The notes below the pieces were generated by a model, which was not told the DNA's origin, searched no databases, and saw only the letters and a program-made list of their open reading frames with translations. A program made the position numbers and the translations under genes. Below are positions 28,571-53,520 of a stretch of DNA of 64,000 nucleotides, piece after piece. Every line of letters starts with the position of its first letter. Within the stretch, counting starts at the first letter, position 1. Origin of the DNA: Terriglobales bacterium (GTDB taxonomy: Bacteria > Acidobacteriota > Terriglobia > Terriglobales > Acidobacteriaceae); the NCBI GenBank assembly GCA_035457425.1, contig DATIBR010000030.1, positions 15,991 through 79,990 of the forward strand, given 5' to 3'.

Positions 28571-28619
28571 CGAGTGGATTTTACGGGGAAAGGTTAGCTG
28601 CTAAACTGGAATGCAGCGA

Positions 28620-28694
28620 GCGGGAGTAGTTCAGCGGTAGAACGCCAGCTTCCCAAGCTGGATGTCGCGGGTTCGATCCCCGTCTCCCGCTCCA
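28620..28694 (+). tRNA. tRNA-Gly (anticodon CCC)
   Basis: Manual cloverleaf: GCGGGAG acceptor, CCAGC-TTCCCAA-GCTGG anticodon arm, GCGGG-TTCGATC-CCCGT T arm, encoded CCA. 75 nt. Confidence 0.9.
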
Positions 28695-28919
28695 AGTCTT
28701 ATTCCCTGGCGTCTCTCCGGGACTGATCGTCTTTTGAGCTACAGCCAGCGCTCAAGCGCTGGGCTATGACCTACCGCGCCTCCGGCGCGCACATCCGGCA
28801 GGCCGCTTCCAGCAGCGCGAACGAGCGCGCTACGCCGGCGTTACCAGCGCCGCGGCGAGCCGAGGGCGGCCAGCCTGAATCCCTCGCATCCCCAACCAGA
28901 TACGGCCGTCACGCGGAAA

Positions 28920-28935
28920 TGTGACCGGTGTCACA
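28920..28935 (+). promoter_or_regulatory. Crp/Fnr-family binding-site candidate upstream of hemerythrin-PFOR
   Basis: TGTGAC-CGGT-GTCACA fits TGTGA-N6-TCACA. TACTAT at 28957-28962 places the box centre at about -41.5. Confidence 0.55.
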
Positions 28936-29001
28936 GGCGGCGTCGACAGGCAGACCTACTATCCGGACAGCAGCAGCAGGCGCAGTAGATGGGAGGACGC
29001 G

Positions 29002-29490
29002 ATGGCATCGGCAGCGATCCTGGAACACGCGAAGGAGATCCGGCAGGAGCACGACCACCTGCTAGGCGAGCTGGAGAAGCTGGATACAGCGTTGGGGCGC
29101 GTCCAGTGTTACAGCGAGGTGTACGCGAACCTGGAAGGCACGGGGGAAGCGAGTGAGATCGCGACCCGGCTGCTGGAGACGGTGATGCGGCACTTCGAGC
29201 ACGAGGAGCGGACGATCCTGCCGGCGCTGAGCCGGCACTATCCGGCGTTCGTGCGCGAGATGCAGCGGCAGCACGACGGAATCCGGCGGCTGCTGCAGCA
29301 CTTCACCACCGACCTGTTGTACCTCGGGCAGGCCGAGGATGTGGACGAGGCGGTGAAGAACCTGAAGGACGAGGGCGAAGACCTCGCGCGGAAGATGGTG
29401 GCGCACATGGAAGCGGAAGAGCGCCGCTATTACCTGCTCAACGAGAATCCGGAAGCGGACTGGGGGAAATGTGAGCGTCTCAACGTTTGA
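29002..29490 (+). CDS. Hemerythrin (HHE cation-binding) domain protein
   Basis: His/Glu ligand pattern (EHDHLLGE, HFEHEE, QHDGIRR, HMEAEE). GGGAGGA RBS before MASAAILEH. Confidence 0.8.
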   Translation: MASAAILEHAKEIRQEHDHLLGELEKLDTALGRVQCYSEVYANLEGTGEASEIATRLLETVMRHFEHEERTILPALSRHYPAFVREMQRQHDGIRRLLQHFTTDLLYLGQAEDVDEAVKNLKDEGEDLARKMVAHMEAEERRYYLLNENPEADWGKCERLNV

Positions 29491-32400
29491 TCGGGCAAAC
29501 GTAGAAGAAAAGATCAAGGCGGAGAAGCCGAAGTACACGGGCATCCGCAGCACCGTCGACGGATCGGGCGCGGTGGTGTGGGTGGAATCGCACATTTCGC
29601 AGGGGGCGTGCGCGTATCCCATCACGCCTTCGACGCCGATGGGCGACGGGTTCGCCGCGGAGTGGTCGAACGGCAAGAAGAACGTGTGGGGCGAGACGAT
29701 CCAGTTCCTGGAGCCGGAATCGGAGCACAGCTCGGCCTCGGCGTGCGAAGGCTACGCGCTGGCGGGCGGGCGAGTGACGAACTTCACCTCGGGCCAGGGC
29801 CTCATCCTGATGAAGGAAGTGCTGTACGTGATCAGCGGCAAGCGGCTGCCGATCGTGTTCCACATCGGAGCGCGGGCGCTGACCTCGCACTCGCTGAACG
29901 TGCACTGCGGCCACGACGACGTGATGGGCGTGGCGGACGTAGGGTGGGGGACGCTGTGGGCGCGCAACGCGCAGGAGTGCGCGGACCTGACGCTGATCGC
30001 GCGGCGCGCGGCGGAGGCGAGCGAGACGCCGTACTTCGTCTCGCAAGACGGCTTCCTGACGACGCACACGCTGGAGACGATCCAGCTGCCGGAGCCGGAG
30101 CTGATGAAGGAGTTCGTGGGACGCCCGCAGGACAAGCTGCGGAAGCTGTTCGATCCGGCGGCGCCGGGAGTAAGCGGCTGCGTGCAGAACCAGGACAGCT
30201 ACATGAAGGGCAAGATCGGCCAGCGCTATTTCTACGCGCAGGTGCAGCCGGACCTGGAGCAGGCGATGGAGGAATTCGGCCGCCTGACGGGCCGGCGTTA
30301 CGGGCTGATCAAGCCGTACAAGATGCAGAAGGCGGAATACGCGTTCGTGGGCATGGGCTCGATGATGGAGACGTGCGAAGCCGCGGTGGACTACCTGCGG
30401 GCGCGCGGACACAACGTGGGGTGCGTGAGCATCACCAGCTTCCGCCCCTTCCCTTCTCGCGAGCTGGCGGAGGCGCTGCGCGACTGCCGCGCGGTCTCGG
30501 TGATCGAGCGCGCGGACGTTCCGCTGGCGCAGTCGAACCCGCTGTCGACGGAAGTCAAGGCAGCGCTGGCGGACGCGCAGACGGGACTCGAGGGTCCGGC
30601 GCAGGAGTGGATCCCGGCGGTGTACTCGGGCGTGGCGGGACTGGGGGGGCGCGACCTGCGCGCCGGCCACTTCGTGGCTGCCCTGGAGAACATGGAGCAG
30701 CTCTATCCGAAGAAGAACTTCGTGCTGGGCGTGAAGCATCCGGACGCGGTCGAGGCGAAGACGGATCCGGACGTGCGGCCGGCGGGGGCGTTCTCGCTGC
30801 GCGGGCACTCGATCGGCGGATTCGGCTCGGTCACGACGAACAAGGTGATCGCGTCAGTGGCATCGGAGCTGTTCGGGCTGTACGCGCAGGCCTTCCCGAA
30901 ATATGGCTCGGAGAAGAAGGGCCTGCCGACCAACTACTACCTGACGCTGGCGCCGGAGCAGGTGCGGCTGCACTGCGAGCTGAACCAAGTGGAGTTTGTG
31001 GCCATCCAGGATGAGAACGCCTTTCTGTCCGGCGATCCCCTGCAGGGCCTGTCCGAGGGCGGGATCGTCTACTGGCAATCGCCGCTCCCGCCCTCACAAA
31101 TCTGGGAGAGCCTGCCGGCGAAGACGCGGCGCACGCTGGCGGAGCGGAAGCAGCGGCTGTTCGCGCTGGACGCGAAGAAGATCGCGCGGGAGAGCTCGAG
31201 CCGCGCCGACCTGCAGGTGAGGATGCAAGGCATCGTGCTGCTGGGGGCGTTCCTGCGGCTGGCGCCGTTCGCGGAACAGGCGGGGCTGGACGAGAGCACG
31301 CTGTTCGCCTCGCTGGAAAAGACGCTGACCAAGTACTTCGGCAAGCGCGGCGGACGCGTGGTGGCCGACAACCTGGAAGCCGCCCGCCGTGGGTATCGCG
31401 AAGTCGCGGAAGTGGCGCACGGGGCCGTGCCCGCGGCGGAACCCTTGAACGTGGTCAACGGCAACGGCCACCGGGAGCTGGCCGGCAATTCGTGCGTCAT
31501 CCCGCCGGACTTCTGCGAGAACATCATCGGGGGATACGCGCGCGGCCGCGAGGCAGCGCTGGAAGCCGACGAATTCGTGGGACGCAGCCTGATCCCGGCC
31601 TCGACCGGGCGGGAGCGCAGCTTCCGCACCCTGGCGCCGGACATTCCCGCGTTCCTGGCGAGCGCGTGCGTGGGCTGCATGGAGTGCGTGAACGTCTGCC
31701 CGGATACGGCGATCCTCGGCAAGGTGGTGGAGAAGACGCGTTACGACGGCGGCATCGCGACCGACGGCGTGCTCTCGAAAGCCTTCTGCCAGACGAGCAA
31801 GTACTACGAGATCCCGCAGCGCAAGGGCGAAGAGCCGGGGATGTTCGGCATCTTCGTGGACCCGGACAAGTGCAAGGGCTGCGGCGAGTGCGTGACGGCG
31901 TGCGGCAAGCACGACGCGCTGAAGATGGTGAGCAAGGCGGCGATCAGCCTGGCGGAGTACGACGCGACGATGGAGCTGTACCGCGCGCTGCCGGACACGC
32001 CGAAGCGCTACCTGAACGAGAAGGCGCTGGGCGACATGATGCTGGGAGCGGACTCGCAGCTGTTCGCGGGCGGCGCCGGGTCGTGCATGGGATGCGGCGA
32101 AGCGACGGCGATCCGGCTGATGCTGGCGGCGACCGGCATGGTGTACGGGGCGGACAAGATCGGCATCGTGGCGGCGACGGGGTGCAACACGGTCTACGGC
32201 TCGACGTATCCGTTCAACCCGTACGCGGTGCCGTGGACGAATTCCCTGTTCGAGAACGCGCCAGCGGATGCGATGGGCATCCGGCTGCGCTGGGACCAGG
32301 AAGGCCACACCGACCGCAAGCTGTGGGTGCTGGGCGGGGACGGCGCGATGTACGACATCGGGTTCCAGTCGCTGTCGCGCATGGTGACTTCTGGCATGGA

Positions 32401-33010
32401 CATCAAGGTCCTGGTGCTGGACACGCAGGTGTACTCGAACACCGGCGGCCAGACCTCGACGGCGACTTTCACTTCACAAGATTCCAAGATGGCTGCGGTG
32501 GGAACTGCGCTGCCAGGCAAGCGAGAGCATCGGAAAGAGCTGGGGAGAATCCTGCTGATGCATCCGAATGTCTTCGTAGCGCAGACCACCGCGGCCCACC
32601 TCAACCATTTCTACAAGACGATCATGGCGGCCAACGAGTACCCGGGCCCGGCCGTGGTGATCGTGTACTCGACTTGCCAGCCTGAGCACGGCGTGCCCGA
32701 CGATGCGTCGATCACTCAGGCGAAGCTGGCGGTCGAGTCGCGCGCATTCCCGCTGCTCGTGTTCGATCCGAGAAAGGGTGAACGGCTGCGCGATTGCCTC
32801 AGCCTGCAAGGCAATCCCGCGATGAAGGAGGACTGGTACGTGGATCCCCGAACCACGGAGCCGGTCGACTTCATCACCTTCGCAAAGAGCGAAGGCCGGT
32901 TCGCCCGCCACTTCTCGGCGGACGGCGTCCCCGACGAGCACCTGAAGGCAGCGCGACTCGACCGCTTGGAGAACTGGCGACGCTTGCAAGAGCTCGCCGG
33001 TCTGCGGTAA
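29471..33010 (+). CDS. nifJ: Pyruvate:ferredoxin (flavodoxin) oxidoreductase, single-polypeptide type
   Basis: 1179 aa. AYPITPSTPMG, two 4Fe-4S ferredoxin motifs (CVGCMECVNVCP, CKGCGECVTACG), TPP motif GGDGAMYDIGFQSL and VYSNTGGQ. GTG start after GGGGGAAA overlaps the hemerythrin gene by 20 nt. Confidence 0.95.
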   Translation: MSVSTFDRANVEEKIKAEKPKYTGIRSTVDGSGAVVWVESHISQGACAYPITPSTPMGDGFAAEWSNGKKNVWGETIQFLEPESEHSSASACEGYALAGGRVTNFTSGQGLILMKEVLYVISGKRLPIVFHIGARALTSHSLNVHCGHDDVMGVADVGWGTLWARNAQECADLTLIARRAAEASETPYFVSQDGFLTTHTLETIQLPEPELMKEFVGRPQDKLRKLFDPAAPGVSGCVQNQDSYMKGKIGQRYFYAQVQPDLEQAMEEFGRLTGRRYGLIKPYKMQKAEYAFVGMGSMMETCEAAVDYLRARGHNVGCVSITSFRPFPSRELAEALRDCRAVSVIERADVPLAQSNPLSTEVKAALADAQTGLEGPAQEWIPAVYSGVAGLGGRDLRAGHFVAALENMEQLYPKKNFVLGVKHPDAVEAKTDPDVRPAGAFSLRGHSIGGFGSVTTNKVIASVASELFGLYAQAFPKYGSEKKGLPTNYYLTLAPEQVRLHCELNQVEFVAIQDENAFLSGDPLQGLSEGGIVYWQSPLPPSQIWESLPAKTRRTLAERKQRLFALDAKKIARESSSRADLQVRMQGIVLLGAFLRLAPFAEQAGLDESTLFASLEKTLTKYFGKRGGRVVADNLEAARRGYREVAEVAHGAVPAAEPLNVVNGNGHRELAGNSCVIPPDFCENIIGGYARGREAALEADEFVGRSLIPASTGRERSFRTLAPDIPAFLASACVGCMECVNVCPDTAILGKVVEKTRYDGGIATDGVLSKAFCQTSKYYEIPQRKGEEPGMFGIFVDPDKCKGCGECVTACGKHDALKMVSKAAISLAEYDATMELYRALPDTPKRYLNEKALGDMMLGADSQLFAGGAGSCMGCGEATAIRLMLAATGMVYGADKIGIVAATGCNTVYGSTYPFNPYAVPWTNSLFENAPADAMGIRLRWDQEGHTDRKLWVLGGDGAMYDIGFQSLSRMVTSGMDIKVLVLDTQVYSNTGGQTSTATFTSQDSKMAAVGTALPGKREHRKELGRILLMHPNVFVAQTTAAHLNHFYKTIMAANEYPGPAVVIVYSTCQPEHGVPDDASITQAKLAVESRAFPLLVFDPRKGERLRDCLSLQGNPAMKEDWYVDPRTTEPVDFITFAKSEGRFARHFSADGVPDEHLKAARLDRLENWRRLQELAGLR

Positions 33011-33035
33011 GGGCCCTGCTCTATTCCTCCAAGAG

Positions 33036-33068
33036 AACGGGGCGCCCTTAGCCCAAGGGCGCCCCGTT
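33036..33068. terminator. Bidirectional GC-rich hairpin between convergent genes
   Basis: AACGGGGCGCCCTT-AGCCC-AAGGGCGCCCCGTT, a perfect 14-bp stem with a weak T tract. Confidence 0.6.
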
Positions 33069-33084
33069 CGACGTTCGCGAGAGA

Positions 33085-33639
33085 CTACTCGGAACTTTCC
33101 TTCAGCGACTTCAGGTTCACGTGGCCGACGGACTGGGCGATGCTGGACGCGCCGGTCGGGATCCTGGAGCCGTGCGGCCAGAGGTCGAAGATGAGGCCGT
33201 CGGTGTGGGAGACGGTCTCGGCGATCTTGGCGCCCTCCTCAGGCGTGACGTCGAGGACCTGGACGCGCTTGGTGGCGATCTCCTGCTTGTGGTCGTGCCA
33301 ATCGCGGTTCCACTGCTTGAGCGTGAGGACGTCGCCCTTGCGGGTGATGCTCTTGGCGACGATGTACTCGATCTGGGTGAGGGGCGCGTTGGCGTCGGTG
33401 GAGTTGTAGATCTGGCACTGGATGATGGGCTCGGGCGAGATGATCTTGCAGTAGTGATGGAAGGGGCCCATCACCTTGCCCTTCACGACGTGGGGAGCGA
33501 GGACGTGGACGGTGTAGCCGTCGGTGGGACGGCTGGTGGCGGCCATGGACGTTTCGCCCTGTGGCTGGAAAGGCTGCGCGCTGACGCCGTAGACCACAAG
33601 GAGCGCAGCGAGCGCGAGGCCCAAAAGCTTGAGTCGCAT
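33085..33639 (-). CDS. Secreted DUF1264-like protein
   Basis: Signal peptide MRLKLLGLALAALLVVYGVSAQP. HHYCK and DWHDH motifs recalled as DUF1264-like; this is a family call from memory. Confidence 0.55.
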   Translation of the reverse strand: MRLKLLGLALAALLVVYGVSAQPFQPQGETSMAATSRPTDGYTVHVLAPHVVKGKVMGPFHHYCKIISPEPIIQCQIYNSTDANAPLTQIEYIVAKSITRKGDVLTLKQWNRDWHDHKQEIATKRVQVLDVTPEEGAKIAETVSHTDGLIFDLWPHGSRIPTGASSIAQSVGHVNLKSLKESSE

Positions 33640-33752: not shown

Positions 33753-34139
33753 TCAGGCGATGGTGTTCTGCAACTGCTCCAGGTTGGCGATCACCTTGCG
33801 AAGCCAATCGGCGACCGCTTCCTGAGTGCGGAGGTCGTCGCCCTTCTCGGCGAGCTTCGCGATGGTGTCGCCCCTGGCGTTGAGCGGGATGTGATGGCAC
33901 GGGCGCTCCTCGCCCATCTTCTCAGCCGGCACCATGCGGGTGAGCAGGCACTGGTCGCATTCGTGGACCCGCTGCGGCTCCCCGAAGTTCAAGCACGTCG
34001 GCGAATCCTGGAAAACGATGGTCGGGTCGTGGGGCTTGTGCACCGAGCGTCCGTAACCGCCCTGCTCGACAAACAACAGCTCCTGCTTGAGCAGCTCGAT
34101 GAGCTCGCGTCCGTAGGGGTCCTGGCTAGGTGTTCTCAT
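33753..34139 (-). CDS. Hypothetical 128-aa Cys/His-containing protein
   Basis: AAGGAGG RBS. Cys at PTCLNF, HECDQC and RPCHH. No recognisable family. Confidence 0.6.
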   Translation of the reverse strand: MRTPSQDPYGRELIELLKQELLFVEQGGYGRSVHKPHDPTIVFQDSPTCLNFGEPQRVHECDQCLLTRMVPAEKMGEERPCHHIPLNARGDTIAKLAEKGDDLRTQEAVADWLRKVIANLEQLQNTIA

Positions 34140-34188: not shown

Positions 34189-34204
34189 TGTGACGGGAGT
34201 CACA
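34189..34204. promoter_or_regulatory. Second Crp/Fnr-family binding-site candidate in a divergent intergenic region
   Basis: TGTGAC-GGGA-GTCACA. On the minus strand, GACAAT at 34167-34162 has the same 29.5-nt offset as at the hemerythrin promoter. Confidence 0.55.
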
Positions 34205-34205
34205 A

Positions 34206-35861
34206 TTGGCGGTGCGGGGGTCACAGGAGGAGGTTTGGGGAGGTGGCTATAATCGTCCTATCTTGAAGGGATTCCAGCGAATCGCGGTGGTGATGGCGCT
34301 GCTGTGCTCCGCCGTGGCGGGGGCGCAGGAGCTGGCCGGCGGCCAGACGGTCGTGGTCCTGCCGTTCGAGAACTCGTCGAAGGCGCCGGGGCTGGAGTGG
34401 ATCGGGGAGTCGTTCCCGGAGATCGTGGGGTCGCGGCTCGCCGCCGGAGGGACGCTGTACGTGGTCTCGCGCGACGTGCGGCGGTACGCCTTCGACCGGT
34501 TGGGGATCCCGAGCGGGGCGCGGCCGTCGTTGGCGACGCTCATCAAGCTGGGCGAGTCGATGGACGCGGACTACCTGGTGGTGGGGCGGTACACCTACGA
34601 CGGGCAGACGTTCAGCGCGAGCGCGCAACTGCTCGACCTGCGCAAGCTGCGGCTCACTCCGGAGATGCGCGCGGCCGGGCCGCTGCCGCAGCTGCTCGAC
34701 CTGGAGCTGGCGCTCACCTGGGACCTGCTGCGGAAGATGAACCCGAACCAGATCATGTCGCGCAACGAGTTCGTGGCGGCGGGTCCGACAGTGCGGCTGG
34801 ACGCGCTGGAGAAGTACATCCGCGGAGTGATGGCGAGCGACCGGGCGGAGCGGCTGCAGCTGCTGAAAGATGCGGTGCGCATCAACGCCGGCTACACGCC
34901 GGCGATCCTGCAACTGGCCAAGACGTATTACGCGGGGCGGGACTATGCGCAAGCGGCGACGTGGTTCGCGCGCGTCCCGCAGAAGGAGCCGGCGGCGCGC
35001 GAGGCGCAGTTCTACCTGGGGATGTCGTCGTACTACACGGGCGACTACGGGCGGGCGCAGGCGGCGTTCGAGTTCGTGGCGACGCGGCTGCCGCTGACGG
35101 AGGTCTACAACAACCTGGGAGTCGTGGCGGGGCGACGGGGCTCGAAGGCCGCGGTCGAGTACTTCCAGCGCGCGGTGCGGACCGACCCCAGCGATCCGGA
35201 CTATCACTTCAACCTGGCGGTGGCGCTCTACAAGGCGGGCGACGCCGCGGGCGCGGCCAAGCAGCTGCGCGAGATGCTGGCGCTGCGCTCGGACGCGGAA
35301 GCGAAGGCGTTCCTGGAGCAGGCGAATGCCGGGCCGCCGCCGACGGTGAAGGGTCAGGCGCCGGTCAAGGTGCCGCTGGAGCGCGTCAAGCCGAACTACG
35401 ACGAGAGCTCGTTCCGGCAGCTGGCGATGGAGATCGAGAGCTTTAACGAGCAGCGCATGGCGGAGGCGGAGCCGAAGGTGCATGCCGCGTTCCACGTGCA
35501 GCACGGCAGAGAGATGCTGGCGCAGGAACTGCTGGTGGTGGCAGAACGCGACTTCCGCGAGGCGCTGGTGCTCGATCCGACGAATGCGGGAGCGCACGCG
35601 GGGCTGGCGCGCTTCCTGGAGCTGACGAGCGACCCGAAGGCGGCGCGCAGCGAAGCGCAGGCTGCGCTGAAGCTAGGGCCCAACGCCGACGCATTTCTAG
35701 TACTGGCGCGACTCGATCTGGACGAGAATAAGCCGGAGGCCGCGAGCGCCAGCGTAGAGCAGGCCCTGAAGCTCGAGCCGGCGAACGCGGCGGCCCAGAC
35801 GCTGAAAAGCGCGATTGCAGCCAAGCTTGCGGAGAAGGGGCAGCCGCTGCGCAACCCATGA
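34206..35861 (+). CDS. Secreted tetratricopeptide-repeat protein
   Basis: Multiple TPR units (for example AQFYLGMSSYYTGDYGRAQAAFE, YHFNLAVALYKAGDAAGA). The true start is probably downstream (TTG 34263 or ATG 34293), giving a signal peptide. The stop overlaps the nfeD ATG. Confidence 0.8.
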   Translation: MAVRGSQEEVWGGGYNRPILKGFQRIAVVMALLCSAVAGAQELAGGQTVVVLPFENSSKAPGLEWIGESFPEIVGSRLAAGGTLYVVSRDVRRYAFDRLGIPSGARPSLATLIKLGESMDADYLVVGRYTYDGQTFSASAQLLDLRKLRLTPEMRAAGPLPQLLDLELALTWDLLRKMNPNQIMSRNEFVAAGPTVRLDALEKYIRGVMASDRAERLQLLKDAVRINAGYTPAILQLAKTYYAGRDYAQAATWFARVPQKEPAAREAQFYLGMSSYYTGDYGRAQAAFEFVATRLPLTEVYNNLGVVAGRRGSKAAVEYFQRAVRTDPSDPDYHFNLAVALYKAGDAAGAAKQLREMLALRSDAEAKAFLEQANAGPPPTVKGQAPVKVPLERVKPNYDESSFRQLAMEIESFNEQRMAEAEPKVHAAFHVQHGREMLAQELLVVAERDFREALVLDPTNAGAHAGLARFLELTSDPKAARSEAQAALKLGPNADAFLVLARLDLDENKPEAASASVEQALKLEPANAAAQTLKSAIAAKLAEKGQPLRNP

Positions 35862-43871: not shown

Positions 43872-44618
43872 CTAGGACGCGACTTCTTCGAGGGCCTTGG
43901 TGTCCATGTCGAAGTTCGACCAAACGTGCTGGACGTCGTCGTGCTCTTCGAGCGCCTCGAGCAGGCGGATCATGGTCTTGGCGGCCTGGCTCTCGAGCTT
44001 CACGTAATTCTGCGGCAACATGCCGACCTCGGCGTGCTCGGGCTTGATGCCGGCCTTCGCGAGGGCTTCCTTGACGGTCTCGAAGGCATTGGGGTCGGTG
44101 ATGAGCTCCCAGCTCTCTCCGTCGTCGCGCAGGTCTTCGCCGCCGGCTTCGAGGACGAGCTCGGTGAGCTTGTCTTCGCTGCCTGCGGACTTAGGAACGA
44201 CGATGGAGCCCTTCTTGTGGAACATCCAGGCGACCGAGCCGGCCTCGCCCATGTTGCCGCCGTTCTTGCTGAAGGCATTGCGGATCTCGCTGACGGTGCG
44301 GTTGCGGTTGTCGGTGGAAACCTCGACCAGCAGGGCGACGCCGCCCGGCCCGTATCCCTCGAACGTCACCTCTTCGTAGGTGACGCCGGGCAGCTCGCCG
44401 GTGCCGCGCTGGATGGCGCGCTTGATGTTGTCGGCGGGCATGTTCTCGGCCTTGGCGGCCGCGACGGCGGTGCGCAGGCGGGGGTTCTTCTCGGGATCAC
44501 CGCCGCCCTTGGCGGCCATGGTGATCTCCTTGATCAAGCGGGTGAAGATCTTGCCGCGCTTGGCGTCGAGCGCGCCCTTCTTATGCTTGATGGTGGCCCA
44601 TTTTGAGTGGCCAGACAT
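43872..44618 (-). CDS. yebC: YebC/PmpR-family DNA-binding regulatory protein
   Basis: [32 protein letters not shown]. Confidence 0.95.
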
Positions 44619-44688
44619 GACGACCTCAGCTTCTGAAAGATTTCCGGCGGCAGATATGGGCCGCAACTGGATGAGAACCAATCAAAAA

Positions 44689-45216
44689 TTATAGCAGAGG
44701 CCTTCTCTGTTCCGAATCGCCGATTGCCGATCGCCGATCGCCGATTTGAGCCACGGCGGTGCTCTTCTTGGCGCGGAAGGCATAGATCACCGCCAGCACC
44801 GGCGGCGCCAGCAGCACGCCCCAGAACGGCAACACGACAGCGCAGACGATGGGGACGACGATCGATGCCCAGACGGGCACGCGGGCGGTCCGCTTCATGA
44901 AGTAGGGCTGGAGCACCAGGCCATCGACCACGGCGATGACCGCGTAGAGGATGAGCAGGTAAAGCAGCGGCATCAGGTTCTCGGGGTCCTTGAAGAACAG
45001 GAACAGCGCCGGTCCGATGAGGGCAAGGATGGCGCCGATGCCGGGGATGAACTGGAATGCAGCGCCGAGGAAGGCCCAGAAGGGCGCCCACGGCACCCCG
45101 ATGATGAGCAGGCCGACCAGCCAGATGGCGCCGACGGCAAGCGCGTCCTGCGTGGTGGCAATGAACCACTGTTTGATCGCGGAGCCAGCGGTCTTGAAGT
45201 GAGGATGGACTTCCAT
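44689..45216 (-). pseudogene. AI-2E (PerM/YhhT) family transporter, C-terminal half only
   Basis: Only about 175 aa, covering the last 4 helices (FQFIPGIGAILALIGP, VDGLVLQPYFM). Only 70 nt separate it from divergent purQ, so no room remains for the N-terminal half. Confidence 0.5.
44716..44743. repeat. Heptanucleotide tandem repeat (ATCGCCG x4, one mismatch) inside the 3' end of the AI-2E fragment
   Basis: ATCGCCG ATTGCCG ATCGCCG ATCGCCG. Confidence 0.7.
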
Positions 45217-45286
45217 CAGAGATGAGATGCGCTTGCAAGGCCATGCTACTCTTGAATGTGGACTCCTCCACACGCAGGCGGACGCG

Positions 45287-45991
45287 ATGAAGTTCGGAGT
45301 CATCACCTTCCCCGGGTCGAACTGCGACCACGACGCCTTCTACGTGGCCGGCCAGGTAGCCAAGCAGCCGGTCGTCTCCCTGTGGCACGATTCGCACGAT
45401 CTGCAAGGCGTGGACTGCGTCATTGTGCCGGGCGGCTTCGCCTATGGCGACTACCTGCGCACCGGCGCCATCGCGAAATTCGCGCCCATCATGGACGAGG
45501 TGCGGAAGCACGCGGCCCAAGGCGGGCTGGTGCTGGGCATCTGCAACGGCTTCCAGATCCTGTGCGAAGCCGGCCTGCTGCCGGGCGCGCTGATGCGCAA
45601 CTCCGGACTCAAGTACGTCTGCAAGCACATCTACCTGCGCGTCGAGAACGCCGAGACGCCGTTCACCGGCGCCTGCCGCGAGGGCGAAGTGCTGAAAATC
45701 CCCATCGGGCACATGGAAGGCAATTACGTGTGCGACGAGCAGACGCTGGCGGCGCTCAAGCGCGACCAACGCATCGTGTTCCGGTACTCGACGCCGGACG
45801 GCAAGCTCACGCCCGAGGCGAACCCCAACGGGTCGCTGGAGAACATCGCGGGCATCTGCAGCGAAGGGCGGAACGTGCTGGGGATGATGCCGCACCCGGA
45901 GCGCGCGGCGGAGCCTGAGCTGGGGTGCACCGACGGGTACAAGGTGTTCGAGTCGCTGGTGCGGGCGATGGTGCCCGCGAGCCGGGGCTAA
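45287..45991 (+). CDS. purQ: Phosphoribosylformylglycinamidine synthase, glutaminase subunit
   Basis: MKFGVITFPGSNCDHD, GGFAYGDYLR, GICNGFQIL, MMPHPER. Confidence 0.95.
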   Translation: MKFGVITFPGSNCDHDAFYVAGQVAKQPVVSLWHDSHDLQGVDCVIVPGGFAYGDYLRTGAIAKFAPIMDEVRKHAAQGGLVLGICNGFQILCEAGLLPGALMRNSGLKYVCKHIYLRVENAETPFTGACREGEVLKIPIGHMEGNYVCDEQTLAALKRDQRIVFRYSTPDGKLTPEANPNGSLENIAGICSEGRNVLGMMPHPERAAEPELGCTDGYKVFESLVRAMVPASRG

Positions 45992-46158
45992 AGCCCCTTT
46001 GCAGAACGCGCCGTGACGCGGCCCTGAAGGGCCGCTCTTCCACCAGCCGCAACCCTGGGCAGCAGCTCTGCTTTCTCTCGGAAAGCGGCCCTCCCGCTCC
46101 GCGGGTGAGGCATCTGAGTCCTGTGTTCCCCCAGAACAACTTTGACACAGGAGCGTGT

Positions 46159-46689
46159 ATGCGTACGAACCTTATCGCACTCCTGACGGCGCTGATCCTG
46201 GCCCTCGCCGTCATGGTCGGCTGCTCACAGAACCGCGCGAATCAACCTTCAGTGAAAGAGAACGTGGAACGGTCGCTCGACCAAGCGAACCTCAAGGACG
46301 TGAACGTGGATGAGGACCGCGACAAGGGCGTCGTGACACTGAAGGGCGAAGTGAAGTCGGAAGCCGACAAGGCGCAGGCTGAAGAGATCGCCAAGGCCGC
46401 GGCCGGGAACCTGATCGTCGCGAACGAGATCTCGGTTCGCCCGGAAGGGATGGAAAGCGAGGCGCGCTCGATGGAGAACGACCTGGATGACGGCATCAAG
46501 AACAACCTCCAGGCGGCGTTCACGGCGAACAAGCTCGACAACCAGCACATCAACATCGACGTGAACAACGGCGTGGTCACGCTGAAGGGCGATGTTGACA
46601 CGGCGGCGCAGCGCAAGGAGGCCGAGAAAGTGGCGGCCAAGGTGCCCAACGTGAAGCAGGTCGTGAACGAGCTAGAAGTGAAAAAGTAG
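46159..46689 (+). CDS. Lipoprotein with two BON domains (OsmY-like)
   Basis: Lipobox LAVMVGC. Two BON-like units VVTLKGEV...A and VVTLKGDV...A. AGGAG RBS. Confidence 0.85.
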   Translation: MRTNLIALLTALILALAVMVGCSQNRANQPSVKENVERSLDQANLKDVNVDEDRDKGVVTLKGEVKSEADKAQAEEIAKAAAGNLIVANEISVRPEGMESEARSMENDLDDGIKNNLQAAFTANKLDNQHINIDVNNGVVTLKGDVDTAAQRKEAEKVAAKVPNVKQVVNELEVKK

Positions 46690-46723
46690 TCTTCGGACGT
46701 CAGTCTTCAGACTTCAGCAAAAA

Positions 46724-46754
46724 GCCTCGCGGACTCCGCGAGGCTTTCTGCTTT
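46724..46754. terminator. Bidirectional intrinsic terminator
   Basis: AAAA-GCCTCGCGG-ACT-CCGCGAGGC-TTTCTGCTTT. Confidence 0.75.
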
Positions 46755-46785
46755 GCCCGCAAGATTGAAGTCTGGAGACGGAGGA

Positions 46786-47898
46786 CTAGAACGCTTCCTT
46801 ATTCACCACGTACGGCATCTTCTTCGGATCTCCGCCGTAGTTCCCTTCCAGGACGTCGATGAGGCCCTGGGCGGTGCGGCCGGCCATACCCTTGTCGGGG
46901 TCGGCGTGCAGGCGGGTGATCTTCGCGCCGGAGGCGAAGTGATGGAAGAGGCGGATGCGGTCGGCGATGGCGGGATCGAGCAGCGGCGAATCGGCGGGCA
47001 GCGGCTCTTTCTCGAAGACGTCGAGGGCGGCGCCGGCGATCCATTTCTCGCGCAGCGCCTGGGCGAGCGCCTTCTCGTCGACCACCGGCCCGCGCGAGGT
47101 GTTGATGAGATACGAGGTCGGCCGCATCCAGCGCAGGGTGGTGACGTTGATGAGGTGATAGGTGGGTACGTCGGTCTCGCCCTCGCGCAGCAACGGCACG
47201 TGCAGCGAGACGTAGTCGGCGTCGCGCAGCGCCTCCATCAACTGGACGTAGCGGATGGTGGTCTTCTCTTTTTGCAGGCCGAGCCGGTGGCGCAACTCCA
47301 TGAGCTCCTGGATGCCGGCGATGAACTTCTCGTTCTGATAGGCCGGGTCGAAGCACAGGATGTTCATGTCGAAGCCGGTGGCCTTCTTGATGAGCGCTTG
47401 CCCGATGCGGCCGGTGCCGATGACGGCGAGCGTCTTGCCGGTGACTTCGTCGCCGAGGAACGGCAGGAACGGGTGCCAGGAGGGCCACGTGAGCTCGCGC
47501 ACCAGCTTCTCGCTCGCCCACATCTTGCGCGCCATCACACCCATCATGAAGAAGGCGAACTCGGCGGTGGCCTCGGTCAGGACGTCGGCGGTGTGTGTGA
47601 ACGGGACCTTGTACTTGTTGGCGTCGGCGCGGTTGATGTTGTCGAAGCCGACGGCGATCTGCGCGACGACCTTGAGCGTGCCCTTCCCCGCTTCGAACAC
47701 TTCCGCGTCGATCTGGTCGCGCAGCGTCGTGATGAGGCCGTCGATGCCGGCCTTAACTTTTTCGATGATGAGTGCTTTCGGTGGCGCTTCGGGGCCCTGG
47801 TAGACCTCGAGGTCGTAGCCGCGCTCGCGCAGGCGGTTCTCGGCGGGGTCGCCGATGCGGGACGTGGCAAAGACGCGGAACTTCTTCTTGTCGGCCAT
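46786..47898 (-). CDS. D-isomer-specific 2-hydroxyacid dehydrogenase family protein
   Basis: GKTLAVIGTGRIGQAL NAD fold. Catalytic-region pattern NTSRGPVVDE and DVFEKEP. Start at MADKKKF. Confidence 0.85.
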   Translation of the reverse strand: MADKKKFRVFATSRIGDPAENRLRERGYDLEVYQGPEAPPKALIIEKVKAGIDGLITTLRDQIDAEVFEAGKGTLKVVAQIAVGFDNINRADANKYKVPFTHTADVLTEATAEFAFFMMGVMARKMWASEKLVRELTWPSWHPFLPFLGDEVTGKTLAVIGTGRIGQALIKKATGFDMNILCFDPAYQNEKFIAGIQELMELRHRLGLQKEKTTIRYVQLMEALRDADYVSLHVPLLREGETDVPTYHLINVTTLRWMRPTSYLINTSRGPVVDEKALAQALREKWIAGAALDVFEKEPLPADSPLLDPAIADRIRLFHHFASGAKITRLHADPDKGMAGRTAQGLIDVLEGNYGGDPKKMPYVVNKEAF

Positions 47899-47968
47899 AA
47901 GAGCCGAAACAATATAAAAGAAAACGATTGAAACGCAGAGCGCGCGGAGAAAAACAGAGGCCGCGGAG

Positions 47969-49159
47969 CTACAGGTTCTTCTTCGCCCAGTCGCCGACGC
48001 GGTCGAGGGCTTTCTGGATGTTCTCGATCGAATTGGCGACGCTGAAGCGCAGGTAGCCTTCGCCGAAGTCACCGAAGGCGGTGCCGGAGAGCGCGGCGAC
48101 GCCGGCGTCGTCGAGCAGCGCGTCGGCCAGCGGCTTGGACTTCCAGCCCGTGTTCTTGATGTTCGGGAACACATAGAAGGCGCCCTTGGGCTTGAGGCAC
48201 GAGAAGCCCTTGATGGAGTTGAGGCCGGCGACCATGAGGTCGCGGCGGCGCTTGAACTCTTCGTTCATCGCGTCCACCGAGGCCTGCGGGCCGCGCAGGG
48301 CTTCGATGCCGGCGACCTGGGTGAAGCTGGCGGTGCAGGAGTTGGAGTTGGTCATCAGGCGCGCGATGTGGGTGGCGAGGTCGGCGCGCATGACGCCGTA
48401 GCCCATGCGCCAGCCGGTCATGGCGTAGGTCTTGGAGAAGCCGTCGAGCAGGATGGTGCGCTCCTTCATGCCGTCGACCGACATGATGGAGTGGTGCTCG
48501 CCCTCGAAGATGAGGCGGCTGTAGATCTCGTCGGAGAGGACCATGATGTCGCGGTCGCCGATGGCGCGCGCGACGGCTTCCACGTCCTTCTTGTCCATCA
48601 TGCCGCCGGTGGGGTTCTGCGGCGAGTTCAGGATGATGAGCTTGGTGCGGTCGGTGATGAGCGCGGCGAGCTCGGCGGTGTCGAGCGAGAAGGCGCGCTC
48701 CTCGCGCAGCTTGATGGGGACAGCCTTGGCGCCGAGGAAGTTGATCATCGATTCGTAGATGGGGAAGCCGGGGTTCGGGTAGATGACCTCATCCCCTTCC
48801 TCAACTAACGCCAATATCGAGAAGAAAATAATCGGCTTACCACCAGGGACAACAACAACTTCTTCGGGCGCGGCTTGGACGTGGCGCGTCTCCGAGACGT
48901 ATTGCGCGATAGTCTCGCGCAGCGGCGGCAGGCCGGCCGAGGGCCCGTAGTGGGTGAAGCCCTTGTGGAGGGCGTCGGTGGCGGCCTCGATGATGTTGCC
49001 CGGAGTGTCGAAGTCGGGCTCGCCGATCTCGAGGTGGACGATGTCGCGGCCCTTGGCTTCCAGGGCGCGGGCTTTGACCAGGACTTCGAAGGCCGTCTCG
49101 GTGCCGAGGCGGGCCATGCGCTTCGCCAGGCGGAGTTCGCTCATAACCGCTTTTGTCAT
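47969..49159 (-). CDS. Class I/II pyridoxal-phosphate aminotransferase (aspartate aminotransferase-like)
   Basis: HLEIGEPDFDTP, NPQNPTGG, FSKTYAMTGWRMGY (PLP Lys). The start could be 49159 or 49144. Confidence 0.9.
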   Translation of the reverse strand: MTKAVMSELRLAKRMARLGTETAFEVLVKARALEAKGRDIVHLEIGEPDFDTPGNIIEAATDALHKGFTHYGPSAGLPPLRETIAQYVSETRHVQAAPEEVVVVPGGKPIIFFSILALVEEGDEVIYPNPGFPIYESMINFLGAKAVPIKLREERAFSLDTAELAALITDRTKLIILNSPQNPTGGMMDKKDVEAVARAIGDRDIMVLSDEIYSRLIFEGEHHSIMSVDGMKERTILLDGFSKTYAMTGWRMGYGVMRADLATHIARLMTNSNSCTASFTQVAGIEALRGPQASVDAMNEEFKRRRDLMVAGLNSIKGFSCLKPKGAFYVFPNIKNTGWKSKPLADALLDDAGVAALSGTAFGDFGEGYLRFSVANSIENIQKALDRVGDWAKKNL

Positions 49160-49267
49160 AAGAGGTACCGCTTTCAGGACGTTATGAAACTCTAGATTAT
49201 AGCTCCCGGCGGAGGCCGCCAATGTGACCGGAATCACCCAGGGCACGTACGCTCAGCACCCCGTGAT

Positions 49268-50236
49268 ATGTTGGGCCGCATGGCCTTATACGTGATCACG
49301 GGAGTGGCGGGATTCATTGGGTCGTCGCTGGCGCGGGCGGTGCTGGCGCAGGGCGACCAGGTGGTGGGCGTCGACAACCTGGCGACCGGACGGCGCGAGA
49401 ACATCGCCGACCTGACCAACAAGATGGATTTCCGCGAGTTCGACATCAACGACATGGGCAAGATGTCGGCGGCGTGCCGCGGGGCGGACGTCGTGCTGCA
49501 CCAGGCAGCGATCGCGAGCGTGCCGCGCTCGGTGCGCGACCCGGGGACCACCAACCGCGCGAACATCGATGGAACGCTGGCCGTGCTGATGGCGGCACGC
49601 GACGCCGGCGTGAAGCGCGTGGTCTATGCGTCGTCGTCGTCGGCCTATGGCGACACCCCTACCCTGCCGAAGCGCGAGGACATGAACCCCAATCCGCGCT
49701 CGCCCTATGCGGTGAGCAAGCTGGCGGGCGAGCTGTACATGAGCGTGTTCGCGAAATGCTATGGGATGGAGACGGTGTCGCTGCGGTACTTCAACATCTT
49801 CGGGCCGCGGCAGGATGCGACGTCACCGTACTCGGCAGTGCTGGCGAAGTTCATTCCGGCGATGCTGCGGGGCGAGGCGCCGACGATCTTCGGCGACGGC
49901 GAGCAGTCGCGCGACTTCAACTACATCGACAACTGCGTGCAGGCGAACCTGGCCGCGCGCAAGGCGCCGGCGGAGAAGGTCGCTGGGCGCGTGTTCAACG
50001 TGGCACGCGGGGAGCGGTTCACGCTCAACCAGTTGTTCGAGATGCTGAAGCCGCTCACCGGGTACAAGGGTGAGGCGACGTACGGTCCGGAGCGCGAAGG
50101 CGACGTAAAGCACTCGCTGGCCGATATTTCTGCCGCGCAGGCGGCGTTCGGGTACGACCCGAAGGTCAGCTTTCAAGAGGGGCTTCGTCGAACCGTCGAG
50201 TGGTATCGCGCGGAGGCAAAGGCTGCCAATGCGTAA
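49268..50236 (+). CDS. NAD-dependent nucleotide-sugar epimerase/dehydratase (extended SDR)
   Basis: ITGVAGFIGSSL, SSSSAYG, YAVSKLAGE (YxxxK). Confidence 0.9.
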   Translation: MLGRMALYVITGVAGFIGSSLARAVLAQGDQVVGVDNLATGRRENIADLTNKMDFREFDINDMGKMSAACRGADVVLHQAAIASVPRSVRDPGTTNRANIDGTLAVLMAARDAGVKRVVYASSSSAYGDTPTLPKREDMNPNPRSPYAVSKLAGELYMSVFAKCYGMETVSLRYFNIFGPRQDATSPYSAVLAKFIPAMLRGEAPTIFGDGEQSRDFNYIDNCVQANLAARKAPAEKVAGRVFNVARGERFTLNQLFEMLKPLTGYKGEATYGPEREGDVKHSLADISAAQAAFGYDPKVSFQEGLRRTVEWYRAEAKAANA

Positions 50237-50269
50237 CCGGGAGCAGGGAGTCAGGAGTTGGCAAGGACA

Positions 50270-50291
50270 AAGGCCGCCCGCGGGCGGCCTT
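50270..50291. terminator. GC palindrome between convergent genes
   Basis: AAGGCCGCCCG/CGGGCGGCCTT, a perfect 22-nt palindrome. Confidence 0.45.
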
Positions 50292-50306
50292 GCTCACTCC
50301 CTACAC

Positions 50307-51275
50307 CTAACTGCTGACTTCTTCCTTGGTGCGGATGACCTTGGCCACGGAGTAGGGCGTGGCTTCGAAGGCCGTGTAGTAGTGGCGGACCTGCATCTCT
50401 CCCAGCAATCCCAGCGCGAGCAACTGGACGCCGGCGACGATGAGGACGGCGGCGAAGATCATCAGGGGACCGTGGTGCTCCATGAGCTGGACGCCGCGGA
50501 AAAACTTGACGTACGCCAGCCAGAGAGCGATGCCGCAGCCGGACATGCCGCTGAGGATGCCGAGGCGTCCGAAGAAGTGCAGCGGGCGCGTGAGGTAGCG
50601 CAGCAGGAAGCGGATGGTCATCAGGTCGAACAGGACGCGGAAGGTGCGCGAGATGCCGTAGTGCGACTTGCGGGTCGCCACGATGTTCTTGATGGGGATC
50701 TCGCAGATGGAAGCGCCGTGGAACGAGGCGAGCGCCGGGATGAAGCGGTGCATCTCGCCGTAGAGCGGGACTTCGGCGAGCAGTTCCCTGCGGTACGCCT
50801 TGAAGGTGGTGCCGAAGTCATGGATGTCGACGCCGGAGAGCTTGGCCATCAGCCAGTTGGCGATGCGCGACGGGAAGCGGCGCATGACGAAGTTGTCGAC
50901 GCGCTCCTTGCGCCATCCGCTGACGACGTCGTAGCCCTCTTCGAGTTTCTCGAGGAATGCGGGGATGTCGGCGGGGTCGTGCTGGAGGTCGCCGTCCATG
51001 GCGATGACGAACTCGCCCTGGGCGTGATCGAAGCCGGCGGCGAGGGCGGAGGTCTGGCCGAAGTTGCGGCGCAGCTTGACGACCACGACGCGGCTGTCGA
51101 CCGCGGCGATGTCCTGGAGCAGGCGGAAGGTGTGGTCGCGCGAGCCGTCGTCGACGAAGACGAACTCGAAGGGCTCGCCCGAGGCCTCCATCACCGCCTT
51201 GAGGCGGGAGTAGAGCTCGGTGACGGAGTCTTCCTCGTCGTGGAACGGGACGACGATGGAGTATTTGAGGGACAT
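50307..51275 (-). CDS. Polyprenyl-phosphate glycosyltransferase (GT2; DPM1/ArnC/GtrB-like) with two C-terminal helices
   Basis: YSIVVPFHDEE, FVDDGSRD, MDGDLQHDP. Confidence 0.9.
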   Translation of the reverse strand: MSLKYSIVVPFHDEEDSVTELYSRLKAVMEASGEPFEFVFVDDGSRDHTFRLLQDIAAVDSRVVVVKLRRNFGQTSALAAGFDHAQGEFVIAMDGDLQHDPADIPAFLEKLEEGYDVVSGWRKERVDNFVMRRFPSRIANWLMAKLSGVDIHDFGTTFKAYRRELLAEVPLYGEMHRFIPALASFHGASICEIPIKNIVATRKSHYGISRTFRVLFDLMTIRFLLRYLTRPLHFFGRLGILSGMSGCGIALWLAYVKFFRGVQLMEHHGPLMIFAAVLIVAGVQLLALGLLGEMQVRHYYTAFEATPYSVAKVIRTKEEVSS

Positions 51276-51365
51276 CGCTGGGACTGATTATATCGTGCGA
51301 GAGGGCGCGGCAGGCGGTGGCGGGAGAGGTTCCCGCGCGGTTTTCGTGGGCTAGAATGGTGGCAA

Positions 51366-51442
51366 GGCCCCGTAGCTCAGATGGATAGAGCAGCGGTTTC
51401 CTAAACCGTAGGTCGGCAGTTCGACTCTGCCCGGGGCCTCCA
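51366..51442 (+). tRNA. tRNA-Arg (anticodon CCT)
   Basis: Manual cloverleaf: GGCCCCG acceptor, GCGGT-TTCCTAA-ACCGT anticodon arm, GGCAG-TTCGACT-CTGCC T arm, encoded CCA. 77 nt. Confidence 0.9.
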
Positions 51443-51534
51443 CATTCGACCGTTTTCCGGCAAAGGCATCGCGACCTTAGTTCGGGCGCATAATAACTAG
51501 ATTCGGCGCTGCTGCGTGCAGCCAGGAGAGCTTT

Positions 51535-51999
51535 ATGATCAGACGCTGGTTGGCAGTATGCGCGCTGGTCTGCGGCTTGTTCCTCACGCCCAGCCTGATG
51601 GCCGACCCGCCACAGGGCCAGGGCAAGGGCAAGAACAAGCCGGAACCAAGCGCGATGAAGGACAAGGACAAAGGCAAGTCCCACGACGTCGCGAAAGACG
51701 ACAAGGGCAAGGACGGGAAGGACAAGTCGAAGGGCAAAGAGAACAAAGCCAAGGACGACGACAAGTGGGAGCGCAAGGGCGGCTTCGAGACGCGGACCTA
51801 CGGTGCGAACGAAGGCAATCCGCCGGGTTGGAGCCGCGGGAAGAAGACCGGGTGGGACAACTGCGGCGTCCCGCCGGGACAGGCGAAGCAGGGCGACTGC
51901 CGCACGTACACGTACCAGAGGCGTCGCTATTACTACTATCGCGACGACCAGGGGCGGGTGGTCGTGCGGCGGCCGGAGATCAGGATCCAGCCGCGCTAG
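51535..51999 (+). CDS. Secreted Lys/Asp-rich low-complexity protein with Cys-containing C-terminal module
   Basis: Signal peptide MIRRWLAVCALVCGLFLTPSLMA, then a KGK/KDK-rich stretch, then GWSRGKKTGWDNCGVPPGQAKQGDC and RRRYYYYRDDQGRVVV. Followed by a strong terminator. Confidence 0.6.
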   Translation: MIRRWLAVCALVCGLFLTPSLMADPPQGQGKGKNKPEPSAMKDKDKGKSHDVAKDDKGKDGKDKSKGKENKAKDDDKWERKGGFETRTYGANEGNPPGWSRGKKTGWDNCGVPPGQAKQGDCRTYTYQRRRYYYYRDDQGRVVVRRPEIRIQPR

Positions 52000-52011
52000 T
52001 GCACAGCAAGG

Positions 52012-52046
52012 AACGCGCTGCACCGGGAGTGGTGCAGCGCGTTTTT
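52012..52046 (+). terminator. Intrinsic terminator
   Basis: AACGCGCTGCACC-GGGAGT-GGTGCAGCGCGTT followed by TTT. Confidence 0.75.
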
Positions 52047-52241
52047 CGTGCTATACTGATCGTGCGTTGATATCGCACGTGAGCGTGCGGTGGGCAATTC
52101 AAGTCACTGACTGAACCTCCTACCTCTTCTTTCCTCCCGTCTAAGCGTTACGCGAGATCAGCCGAGACAGGCGTCCCGCGCCCAGCAAACAGCGGAATCA
52201 CGTTTGCAGCCGCCACGCCGTCCAGGAAAGCAACAAGACAA

Positions 52242-53471
<1,230 letters not shown>

Positions 53472-53488
53472 TCGCAAGGAACCAGCAG

Positions 53489-53516
53489 CGCGGCACGCGA
53501 GAGCGTGCCGCGTTTT
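53489..53516 (+). terminator. Intrinsic terminator of the helicase gene
   Basis: CGCGGCACGC-GAGA-GCGTGCCGCG followed by TTTTCTT. Confidence 0.7.
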
Positions 53517-53520
53517 CTTG

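Follow-up and report, generated by a model that had tools for sequence, protein, structure and literature searches.

Although pyruvate:ferredoxin oxidoreductase (PFOR) is the classic example of an oxygen-sensitive enzyme from anaerobes, it is common among soil Acidobacteria living at shifting oxygen levels. How such an enzyme is controlled and maintained there is the question raised by a locus in a 64,000-nucleotide (nt) stretch of DNA from a Terriglobales acidobacterium (hereafter the window; part of contig C30), where a gene for a hemerythrin-like protein overlaps a gene for a PFOR-type enzyme behind a palindromic box. The genome, an assembly of 3.14 megabases in 192 contigs (66.7% GC, 96% complete), belongs to the same genus as a groundwater metagenome-assembled genome (MAG) labelled Candidatus Korobacter versatilis. 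The answer we favour, with a probability of roughly 0.6, is that a low-oxygen regulator of the FNR type activates a translationally coupled hemerythrin-PFOR operon together with a wider regulon, and that the hemerythrin partners PFOR.

The box, TGTGACCGGTGTCACA, is a perfect 16-base-pair (bp) palindrome at positions 28920-28935 (centre 28927.5). It is a palindromic site of the Crp/Fnr family, as the sequence-only reading of this DNA had it, and can be specified further as a CRP-type site, TGTGA-N6-TCACA, not an FNR-type site, TTGAT-N4-ATCAA. The same reading had paired the box with the −10 hexamer TACTAT, and both elements are where it placed them; the hexamer, on the plus strand at 28957-28962, begins 29.5 nt away from the centre of the box. 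Judging from the position of the −10 element, transcription would start near 28969, giving the hemerythrin gene a predicted 5′ untranslated region of ~33 nt. This gene (29002-29490, plus strand, 162 amino acids) begins at the ATG at 29002, in frame with the open reading frame (ORF) 28921..29490, and is preceded by the Shine-Dalgarno sequence GGGAGGA (28990-28996). The fused PFOR-type ORF of 1179 amino acids follows on the same strand, from a GTG at 29471 to 33010, with the 20-nt overlap that had been described. We found no alternative in-frame start upstream of its conserved N-terminal block, and a GGGGG Shine-Dalgarno sequence for the GTG lies within the 3′ end of the hemerythrin gene (29462-29466), which supports translational coupling of PFOR.

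A simple scan of 28600-33200 for sigma-70 promoters revealed no full −35/−10 promoter, and no −35 hexamer lies 17±1 nt upstream of TACTAT, where the sequence reads CAGGCG. The absence of a full sigma-70 promoter fits an activator-dependent promoter. We also considered GTCACA as a −35 element and rejected it, since its spacer to the −10 hexamer, 21 nt, is too long. Downstream of PFOR, a 15-bp GC-rich hairpin (33035-33069; the fold of 33011-33085 has −37.4 kcal/mol, z −3.5) separates the gene from a convergent DUF1264 gene, so that the operon would comprise just the hemerythrin and PFOR genes. The hairpin is likely a bidirectional terminator closing this two-gene operon; it has no T-run, and a simple terminator scan of 28600-33200 gave no match.

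A genome-wide search for TGTGAC-N4-GTCACA, which the sequence-only reading had suggested, made the box part of a predicted regulon. We found 12 perfect sites, two of them within the window, where base composition predicts ~0.09; sites with one mismatch occur 19 times in the whole genome, against 3.9 expected. Each of the 12 perfect sites lies between genes, at a distance of 35-90 nt before a gene start, and perfect and one-mismatch sites taken together are nearly all intergenic. These figures argue that the box is a genuine operator, not a chance occurrence. Two TGTGACGTACGTCACA sites, on contigs C4 and C73, were considered as one locus split over contigs; their flanks differ, and they were therefore kept as two loci.

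Target genes behind the boxes were named with NCBIfam and Pfam. The perfect boxes precede, besides the hemerythrin-PFOR pair, a gene for a 128-amino-acid Cys/His-rich protein in the window; a ccmF/nrfE-type haem lyase gene; hemA; ccmE-ccmA; a Crp/Fnr regulator gene; a long cluster encoding a YwiC-like membrane protein, RIC/YtfE, a TIGR04053 (AhbD-like) radical-SAM protein, copper NirK and qNor; genes for cytochrome c, a Rieske protein and cytochrome b; an NfnAB/SudAB-like ferredoxin:NAD(P) oxidoreductase pair; a YifB/ComM-type Mg-chelatase-like ATPase gene; hemE; and a gene for a small Cys protein followed by one for a TolC-like outer-membrane efflux protein. One-mismatch sites precede genes for multihaem cytochromes, a DmsE-type decahaem cytochrome with an outer-membrane barrel, a cupredoxin-like (CoxB-like) protein, transketolase and an AhpC-like protein (names read by eye, except for the DmsE-type decahaem cytochrome). 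By its predicted content the regulon is one of anaerobic respiration, denitrification, haem and Fe-S functions. Such gene content is elsewhere controlled by FNR/ANR/DNR-type factors.

Two of these loci have features of their own. On contig C74, the long same-strand cluster behind the perfect box spans 43979-54874, and its NirK carries a fused C-terminal cupredoxin. At the cluster's end, a DmsE-family decahaem cytochrome and a 795-amino-acid predicted outer-membrane barrel have their own one-mismatch box (C74:51288) and resemble a porin-cytochrome module under the same regulator. On contig C119 (39557-42027), the NfnAB/SudAB-like pair behind its perfect box adjoins a gene for a 795-amino-acid fused E1-type 2-oxoacid dehydrogenase. 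With perfect boxes at both PFOR and the Nfn-like pair, ferredoxin-producing and ferredoxin-consuming enzymes appear to be co-regulated.

The sequence-only reading held that the cognate regulator is not encoded in the window, and a search for Crp/Fnr-family genes indeed yielded a strong candidate on contig C74. The genome has seven HTH_Crp_2 matches, and the best of them (C74:43157-43867; PF13545, 71 bits), a protein with a cNMP-binding-like beta-roll, is encoded between two perfect boxes. One is centred 65 nt upstream of its ATG, in a class II-like geometry; the other lies immediately downstream of the gene, ahead of the ywiC-RIC-nirK-qnor cluster. The recognition helix of the C74 protein, SRETVTR, is of the CRP type (R-E-x3-R) and is invariant in 14 orthologues and paralogues. 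R180 and E181 of such helices correlate with the G and A of TGTGA (Rodionov et al., PMC1274295); R180, E181 and R185 of the C74 protein fit the observed TGTGA half-site, and the CRP-type helix thus accounts for the half-sites. The nearest solved structures by sequence are those of Mycobacterium tuberculosis CRP and Corynebacterium glutamicum GlxR, both TGTGA-binding (full-length alignment, E 5e-19). Ahead of the CRP core the protein has an N-terminal extension, and every orthologue and paralogue examined keeps the same four Cys: a C-x2-C-x8-C motif in the extension and C63 in the beta-roll. The NCBIfam FNR, FnrL, FixK and FtrB models all scored below their cut-offs (FtrB, the best, 82.8 bits against 211; FNR, 41 bits against 228). 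The C74 protein is, then, likely the regulator of the box, and its sequence makes it FNR-like in layout, not in Cys spacing. By analogy, the four Cys would hold an Fe-S cluster labile to O2 and nitric oxide (NO), and the signal is probably low-oxygen/NO.

The occurrence of regulator and motif across genomes agrees with this assignment. In the eight relatives first tested, the regulator has an orthologue at 62-68% identity and the motif is enriched in every case, with a reversed-pattern control giving 0. We extended the comparison to 61 relatives, counting as orthologues matches with E≤1e-70. The 26 genomes with an orthologue hold 113 perfect boxes, with at least one box in 24 of them; the 27 genomes without any regulator homologue hold 2 boxes in total. 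Within the family only, the box is present in 24 of 26 genomes with an orthologue versus one of six without a homologue. Local synteny of regulator and box is maintained in two relatives (G002 and G019). In three genomes from three other genera (G012, G017 and G018), a regulator orthologue at 57-58% identity is the divergent neighbour of a NifJ-type PFOR gene, and two TGTGA-N6-TCACA boxes lie in the intergenic region between them. At the level of gene order, these divergent pairs point to an independent link of the regulator subfamily to PFOR.

A different factor binding TGTGA-N6-TCACA, namely Rex or one of the cAMP-type CRP paralogues on contigs C181 and C102, would make the regulon respond to NADH/NAD+ or carbon status. 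Rex operators share this core (PMC5355995, PMC5701242), and their usual targets are genes for haem, fermentation and ferredoxin-linked functions (PMC5355995); the sites of Rex and HcpR1 are identical (PMC5701242), and both paralogues have R-E-x3-R helices. The shared core made Rex a serious rival until its domain was searched for: neither this genome nor any of six motif-bearing relatives, of which two are 100% complete, contains the DNA-binding domain PF06971, control genomes being positive, and Rex was rejected on this ground. As to the paralogues, no box lies beside their genes, as against the two flanking the C74 gene. The motif, moreover, follows the C74 orthologue from genome to genome, and the regulon is respiratory and denitrifying, not catabolic. 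We consider control by any of these other factors very improbable.

We next turn to the way in which the C74 protein would act. The 12 perfect-box promoters were aligned on the box and oriented towards the target gene. At a fixed distance they display −10-like hexamers: TACTAT, GACAAT, TATCGT, TATAAT, TAGGAT, GAGTAT, CAAACT, GAAAAT, TACACT, TACAAT and TAGTCT. Scored with a −10 weight matrix, the promoters average ~−5.5 bits at most offsets from the box centre but reach +1.3 at 29.5 nt and −0.6 at 30.5 nt, and this sharp peak at 29.5-30.5 nt holds over 12 as well as over 22 sites. The pattern nAnnnT, which has a genome-wide background of 0.027 per position, starts at 29.5 nt in eight promoters and at 30.5 nt in three (11 of the 12 perfect-box sites); any other offset is used by at most two promoters. 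With a transcription start ~7 nt past the −10 element, the box would be centred at −41.5 or −42.5. The class II spacing (29.5 nt to the first base of the −10 element, with the −35 element replaced by the box) was found in the window promoter and in 10 of the other 11. Class II placement, proposed by the sequence-only reading for the window promoter with the centre at about −41.5, is therefore in silico a property of the whole regulon, and it recurs in the orthologous promoter of the same genus (TACCAT at 29.5 nt).

This geometry bears on whether the protein activates or represses. Acting as a repressor, the same Crp/Fnr protein would occlude the −35 region and be released upon damage of its cluster by O2 or NO, so that oxidative or nitrosative stress would induce the genes. 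Repressor sites, however, usually vary in position; here the distance from box to −10 element is fixed at 29.5-30.5 nt in 11 of 12 promoters, with no −35 element at 17±1 nt, as is typical of class II activation. Repression would agree with a box that covers the −35 region, and induction by stress would be biologically sensible for the NO-handling qNor, RIC and nirK genes; in the model for Desulfovibrio desulfuricans HcpR2, NO likewise lifts repression by damaging an Fe-S cluster (PMC5701242). Anaerobic activators, on the other hand, typically target haem synthesis, ccm and bc-complex genes, and we regard repression as unlikely.

The two proteins of the operon were then compared with known families. 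The 162-amino-acid protein matches hemerythrin (PF01814) over residues 11-144 with 41.3 bits (gathering cut-off 25.3; E 2.6e-10). Residues H17, E39, H64, E68, E69, Q90, H91, H135, E139 and E140 are invariant in 34 homologues, and they include the whole HHE di-iron signature H...HxxxE...H...HxxxE (H17, H64, E68, H91, H135 and E139); C36 is nearly invariant (at least 90% of the 34 homologues). The AlphaFold (AF2) model has four long helices forming a four-helix bundle (predicted local distance difference test, pLDDT, 91). Its best fold match in the PDB is 3cax (TMq 0.75), the Pyrococcus furiosus protein PF0695, whose entry describes it as uncharacterised. A sequence search of the PDB with the hemerythrin profile, unlike the fold search, yielded nothing significant, and no NCBIfam model matched the protein. 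Its alignment with the RIC protein of the same genome is weak (hhalign probability 15%). The model and the conserved ligands indicate a stand-alone di-iron four-helix-bundle protein, with binding of Fe and of O2/NO predicted. Six proteins of the genome match PF01814. On contig C102 (4182-5747), two further PF01814 genes directly follow, on the same strand, a third Crp/Fnr paralogue (helix VRELVSR, cut by the contig end), which gives the genome a second association of Crp/Fnr and hemerythrin genes.

The PFOR ORF comprises, in one chain, POR_N, PFOR_II, POR(gamma), 2x[4Fe-4S] and TPP_enzyme_C. The sequence-only reading had called it a pyruvate:ferredoxin oxidoreductase, and the PFOR-type domains are indeed all present; the name needs qualifying, because the ORF reaches only 565 bits, in two stretches, with the NifJ-type model TIGR02176 (cut-off 911) and has no EKR domain (PF10371). 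The hemerythrin-linked PFOR of a relative (L046) scores 1855 bits with the same model. By its domain content the window enzyme is best described as a divergent fused PFOR-type 2-oxoacid:ferredoxin oxidoreductase, with pyruvate as its presumed substrate. The genome also encodes 2-oxoacid dehydrogenase E1 components, which makes PFOR plausibly a conditional, low-oxygen route.

Is the association between the two genes conserved? In the same-genus MAG (locus L008), the hemerythrin is 74% and the PFOR orthologue 82% identical to those of the window, and the pair stands behind TGTGACGCGAGTCACA, where TACCAT again begins 29.5 nt from the box centre. The spacer has changed whereas half-sites and −10 element have been preserved, which reads as a clear phylogenetic footprint. 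A tRNA-Gly(CCC) gene lies upstream of the hemerythrin promoter in both the window (28620-28694) and L008 (4700-4775); it is inverted in L008, which implies a small local inversion beside the conserved promoter.

A search with the single hemerythrin sequence gave 12 close matches, and a four-sequence profile gave 115. We traced distant homologues (35-42% identity) in two further genera and at ten metagenomic or MAG loci. Absence of the adjacency from relatives had been named by the sequence-only reading as a reason to give it up; the hemerythrin homologue lies directly upstream of PFOR in all 12 loci examined. The outer neighbours of the pairs differ (tRNA-Gly, iron permease, suf operon, nitrilase, PIN gene, racemase), and the partner is either of a ~1180-amino-acid EKR-less PFOR clade or of a ~1200-amino-acid canonical NifJ clade, the two being ~33% identical. 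Pairing with two PFOR clades argues for a functional rather than a merely inherited tie. From the obligate gene pair in these loci, the hemerythrin would be a dedicated partner of PFOR. In the NifJ-type loci L046-L048, L071 and L072, the pair is followed by a dihydroorotate dehydrogenase-like gene (PF01180) overlapping the PFOR stop, and in L046-L048 a suf Fe-S assembly operon precedes the pair.

The box accompanies the pair as well, with 0-1 mismatches within 200 nt upstream in all 12 loci. In seven of the ten distant loci (L011, L012, L045, L046, L049, L070 and L071), a weaker second box lies exactly 22 nt downstream of the first, and a −10-like GACCAT or GAGCAT is found ~30 nt from this proximal, weaker box. 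As 22 nt correspond to two helical turns, the arrangement suggests tandem dimers at ~−41.5 and −63.5 in the two-box relatives. In the window, a degenerate second box, AGATACGGCCGTCACG, can be read at 28898-28913, 22 nt upstream of the main box; it is possibly, on weak grounds, a remnant of the tandem arrangement known from relatives. The comparison suggests that the window and its same-genus relative have reduced tandem boxes to one strong box.

What the hemerythrin does for PFOR admits more than one view. Most probably it would shield or maintain the [4Fe-4S] clusters that lie exposed in the enzyme, both during O2 transients and in the face of NO produced by the co-induced NirK. The protein could instead be an iron donor or repair factor like RIC/YtfE, an O2/NO sensor that switches PFOR, or a terminal acceptor for O2, H2O2 or NO. 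Its HHE di-iron signature is the same as that of RIC, to which it has the weak profile match given above, and Cys36, near-invariant, is close in sequence to the invariant E39; in some relatives the pair adjoins the suf operon. A canonical RIC is, however, already part of the same regulon, and Campylobacter jejuni HerA averted damage without accelerating repair (PMC4257069). A sensor would normally be fused to an output domain, and the window protein is stand-alone. We see these non-shielding roles as a real but lesser possibility. A bolder variant, which we think improbable, makes the hemerythrin an accessory subunit of PFOR that sits over the distal [4Fe-4S] cluster and lets PFOR electrons reduce O2, H2O2 or NO, under the control of an undescribed CRP-specific, four-Cys FNR subfamily. 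Were it true, PFOR would protect itself, which would permit ferredoxin-dependent pyruvate oxidation by abundant soil Terriglobales in fluctuating micro-oxic/denitrifying niches.

Activation and shielding can be combined into a mechanism. At low oxygen, a holo-dimer of the C74 regulator would bind the box centred near −41.5, take the place of the missing −35 element and activate transcription, yielding a two-gene hemerythrin-PFOR mRNA that, in this genus, would be translationally coupled. The same regulator would activate nirK, qNor, RIC, haem synthesis, cytochrome c maturation, the bc complex and the NfnAB-like enzyme, and the hemerythrin would be made along with the clusters it is proposed to shield.

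Several observations weigh against this mechanism. Its support comes from sequence analysis. The co-occurrence of regulator and motif is partly confounded by phylogeny, as a whole sister family lacks both. The putative cluster-binding Cys pattern of the C74 protein is unlike that of every characterised FNR. The C181 and C102 paralogues could, with their R-E-x3-R helices, share or compete for the sites. An NO-labile activator of NO-detoxifying genes is an awkward design, and the regulator may use another signal. On the side of the gene pair, PFOR orthologues at 71-82% identity occur in G001, G008, G019 and G030, and those of G019 (75%) and G030 (72%) carry the box without a hemerythrin, which appears, from these genomes, to be dispensable in some lineages. 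PFOR would hence be the core regulon member and the hemerythrin a lineage-restricted add-on. The PFOR-linked hemerythrin was found in only four of the 61 relatives and in two of 401 sampled genomes of the phylum, where a phylum-wide profile search of 400 genomes added one further, distant match; the subfamily is, in these samples, rare among sampled species and seen mostly in metagenomes. Finally, the 20-nt overlap is particular to this genome: start and stop overlap by 4 nt (GTGA) in the same-genus relative, and gaps of 60-300 nt separate the genes in more distant relatives, one of them containing an internal box.

The window holds a second perfect box, TGTGACGGGAGTCACA, at 34189-34204. On its minus side, GACAAT at 34167-34162 has the same 29.5-nt offset, ahead of the gene for the 128-amino-acid Cys/His-rich protein (33753-34139, minus strand), a predicted regulon member for which neither Pfam nor NCBIfam gave a match. 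A TPR gene on its plus side is closely preceded by a perfect TATAAT (34248-34253) that lies 51.5 nt away from the box centre; the real start of this gene is probably near 34264, leaving it almost leaderless.

If the favoured reading is right, a hemerythrin constantly paired with PFOR of two clades offers a testable genetic handle on PFOR upkeep in micro-oxic soil, and the protein could serve as a portable protective partner for ferredoxin-dependent pathways engineered in oxygen-exposed hosts. The regulon reconstruction provides the first concrete candidate, with its operator, for a global low-oxygen/denitrification regulator in Terriglobales, and with it a first handle on low-oxygen control in an abundant, little-studied soil lineage. 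A literature search on an acidobacterial FNR regulon or on a hemerythrin-PFOR pair found nothing relevant, and the comparisons that follow are with systems of other bacteria.

The C74 regulator resembles Escherichia coli FNR, FnrP and ANR in its Crp/Fnr fold with an N-terminal Cys-rich extension plus one internal Cys, in a 16-bp palindrome near −41.5, in an autoregulatory site, and in a regulon of anaerobic respiration, haem synthesis and cytochrome maturation. It differs from FNR in the recognition helix and site (R-E-x3-R and TGTGA-N6-TCACA, versus E-x2-S-R and TTGAT-N4-ATCAA) and in its Cys (C-x2-C-x8-C and the beta-roll Cys, versus C-x2-C-x5-C and C122). In DNA specificity it is closer to Bacillus subtilis Fnr, which uses a TGTGA-N6-TCACA site and binds its cluster through C-terminal cysteines. 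B. subtilis Fnr and HcpR/HcpR1 are redox- or NO-responsive Crp/Fnr regulators that recognise a CRP-like site via R-E-x3-R (PMC1274295, PMC5701242), with TGTGA-N6-TCACA sites documented for D. desulfuricans HcpR1 (PMC5701242), and ferredoxin-, hemerythrin- and cytochrome c-like genes are frequent members of HcpR regulons. HcpR1, however, is thought to sense through haem, neither it nor B. subtilis Fnr has the N-terminal C-x2-C-x8-C motif, and no hcp gene was seen among the targets here.

Like RIC/YtfE/ScdA, the hemerythrin is an HHE-type di-iron four-helix bundle with a connection to Fe-S enzyme maintenance, and a RIC gene belongs to its regulon; unlike them, it has no ScdA_N domain, no NCBIfam match and only a weak alignment with RIC. 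The closest functional precedent is the pair HerA (Cj0241) and HerB of C. jejuni, which prevent O2 damage to Por and Oor and for which there is two-hybrid evidence of contact (Kendall et al. 2013, PMC4257069). In both cases a pyruvate:acceptor oxidoreductase whose [4Fe-4S] clusters are labile is linked in function to a small di-iron protein of the hemerythrin family, and protection would serve a micro-oxic lifestyle, a role predicted here from the genes. The protein here has the HHE-type H...HxxxE...H...HxxxE signature. Contact, suggested in C. jejuni by two-hybrid analysis, is suggested here by obligate gene pairing. And whereas herA lies upstream of iscS and nifU, not adjacent to por, the hemerythrin and PFOR genes here would form one operon, translationally coupled in the genus and conserved with two PFOR clades. 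Nothing in the locus falls outside known biology. Set against these systems, what appears novel is an FNR-like sensor that combines CRP-type DNA specificity with a distinct Cys motif and, by analogy with HerA/HerB, a protective relationship between hemerythrin and PFOR that is hard-wired in the genome.

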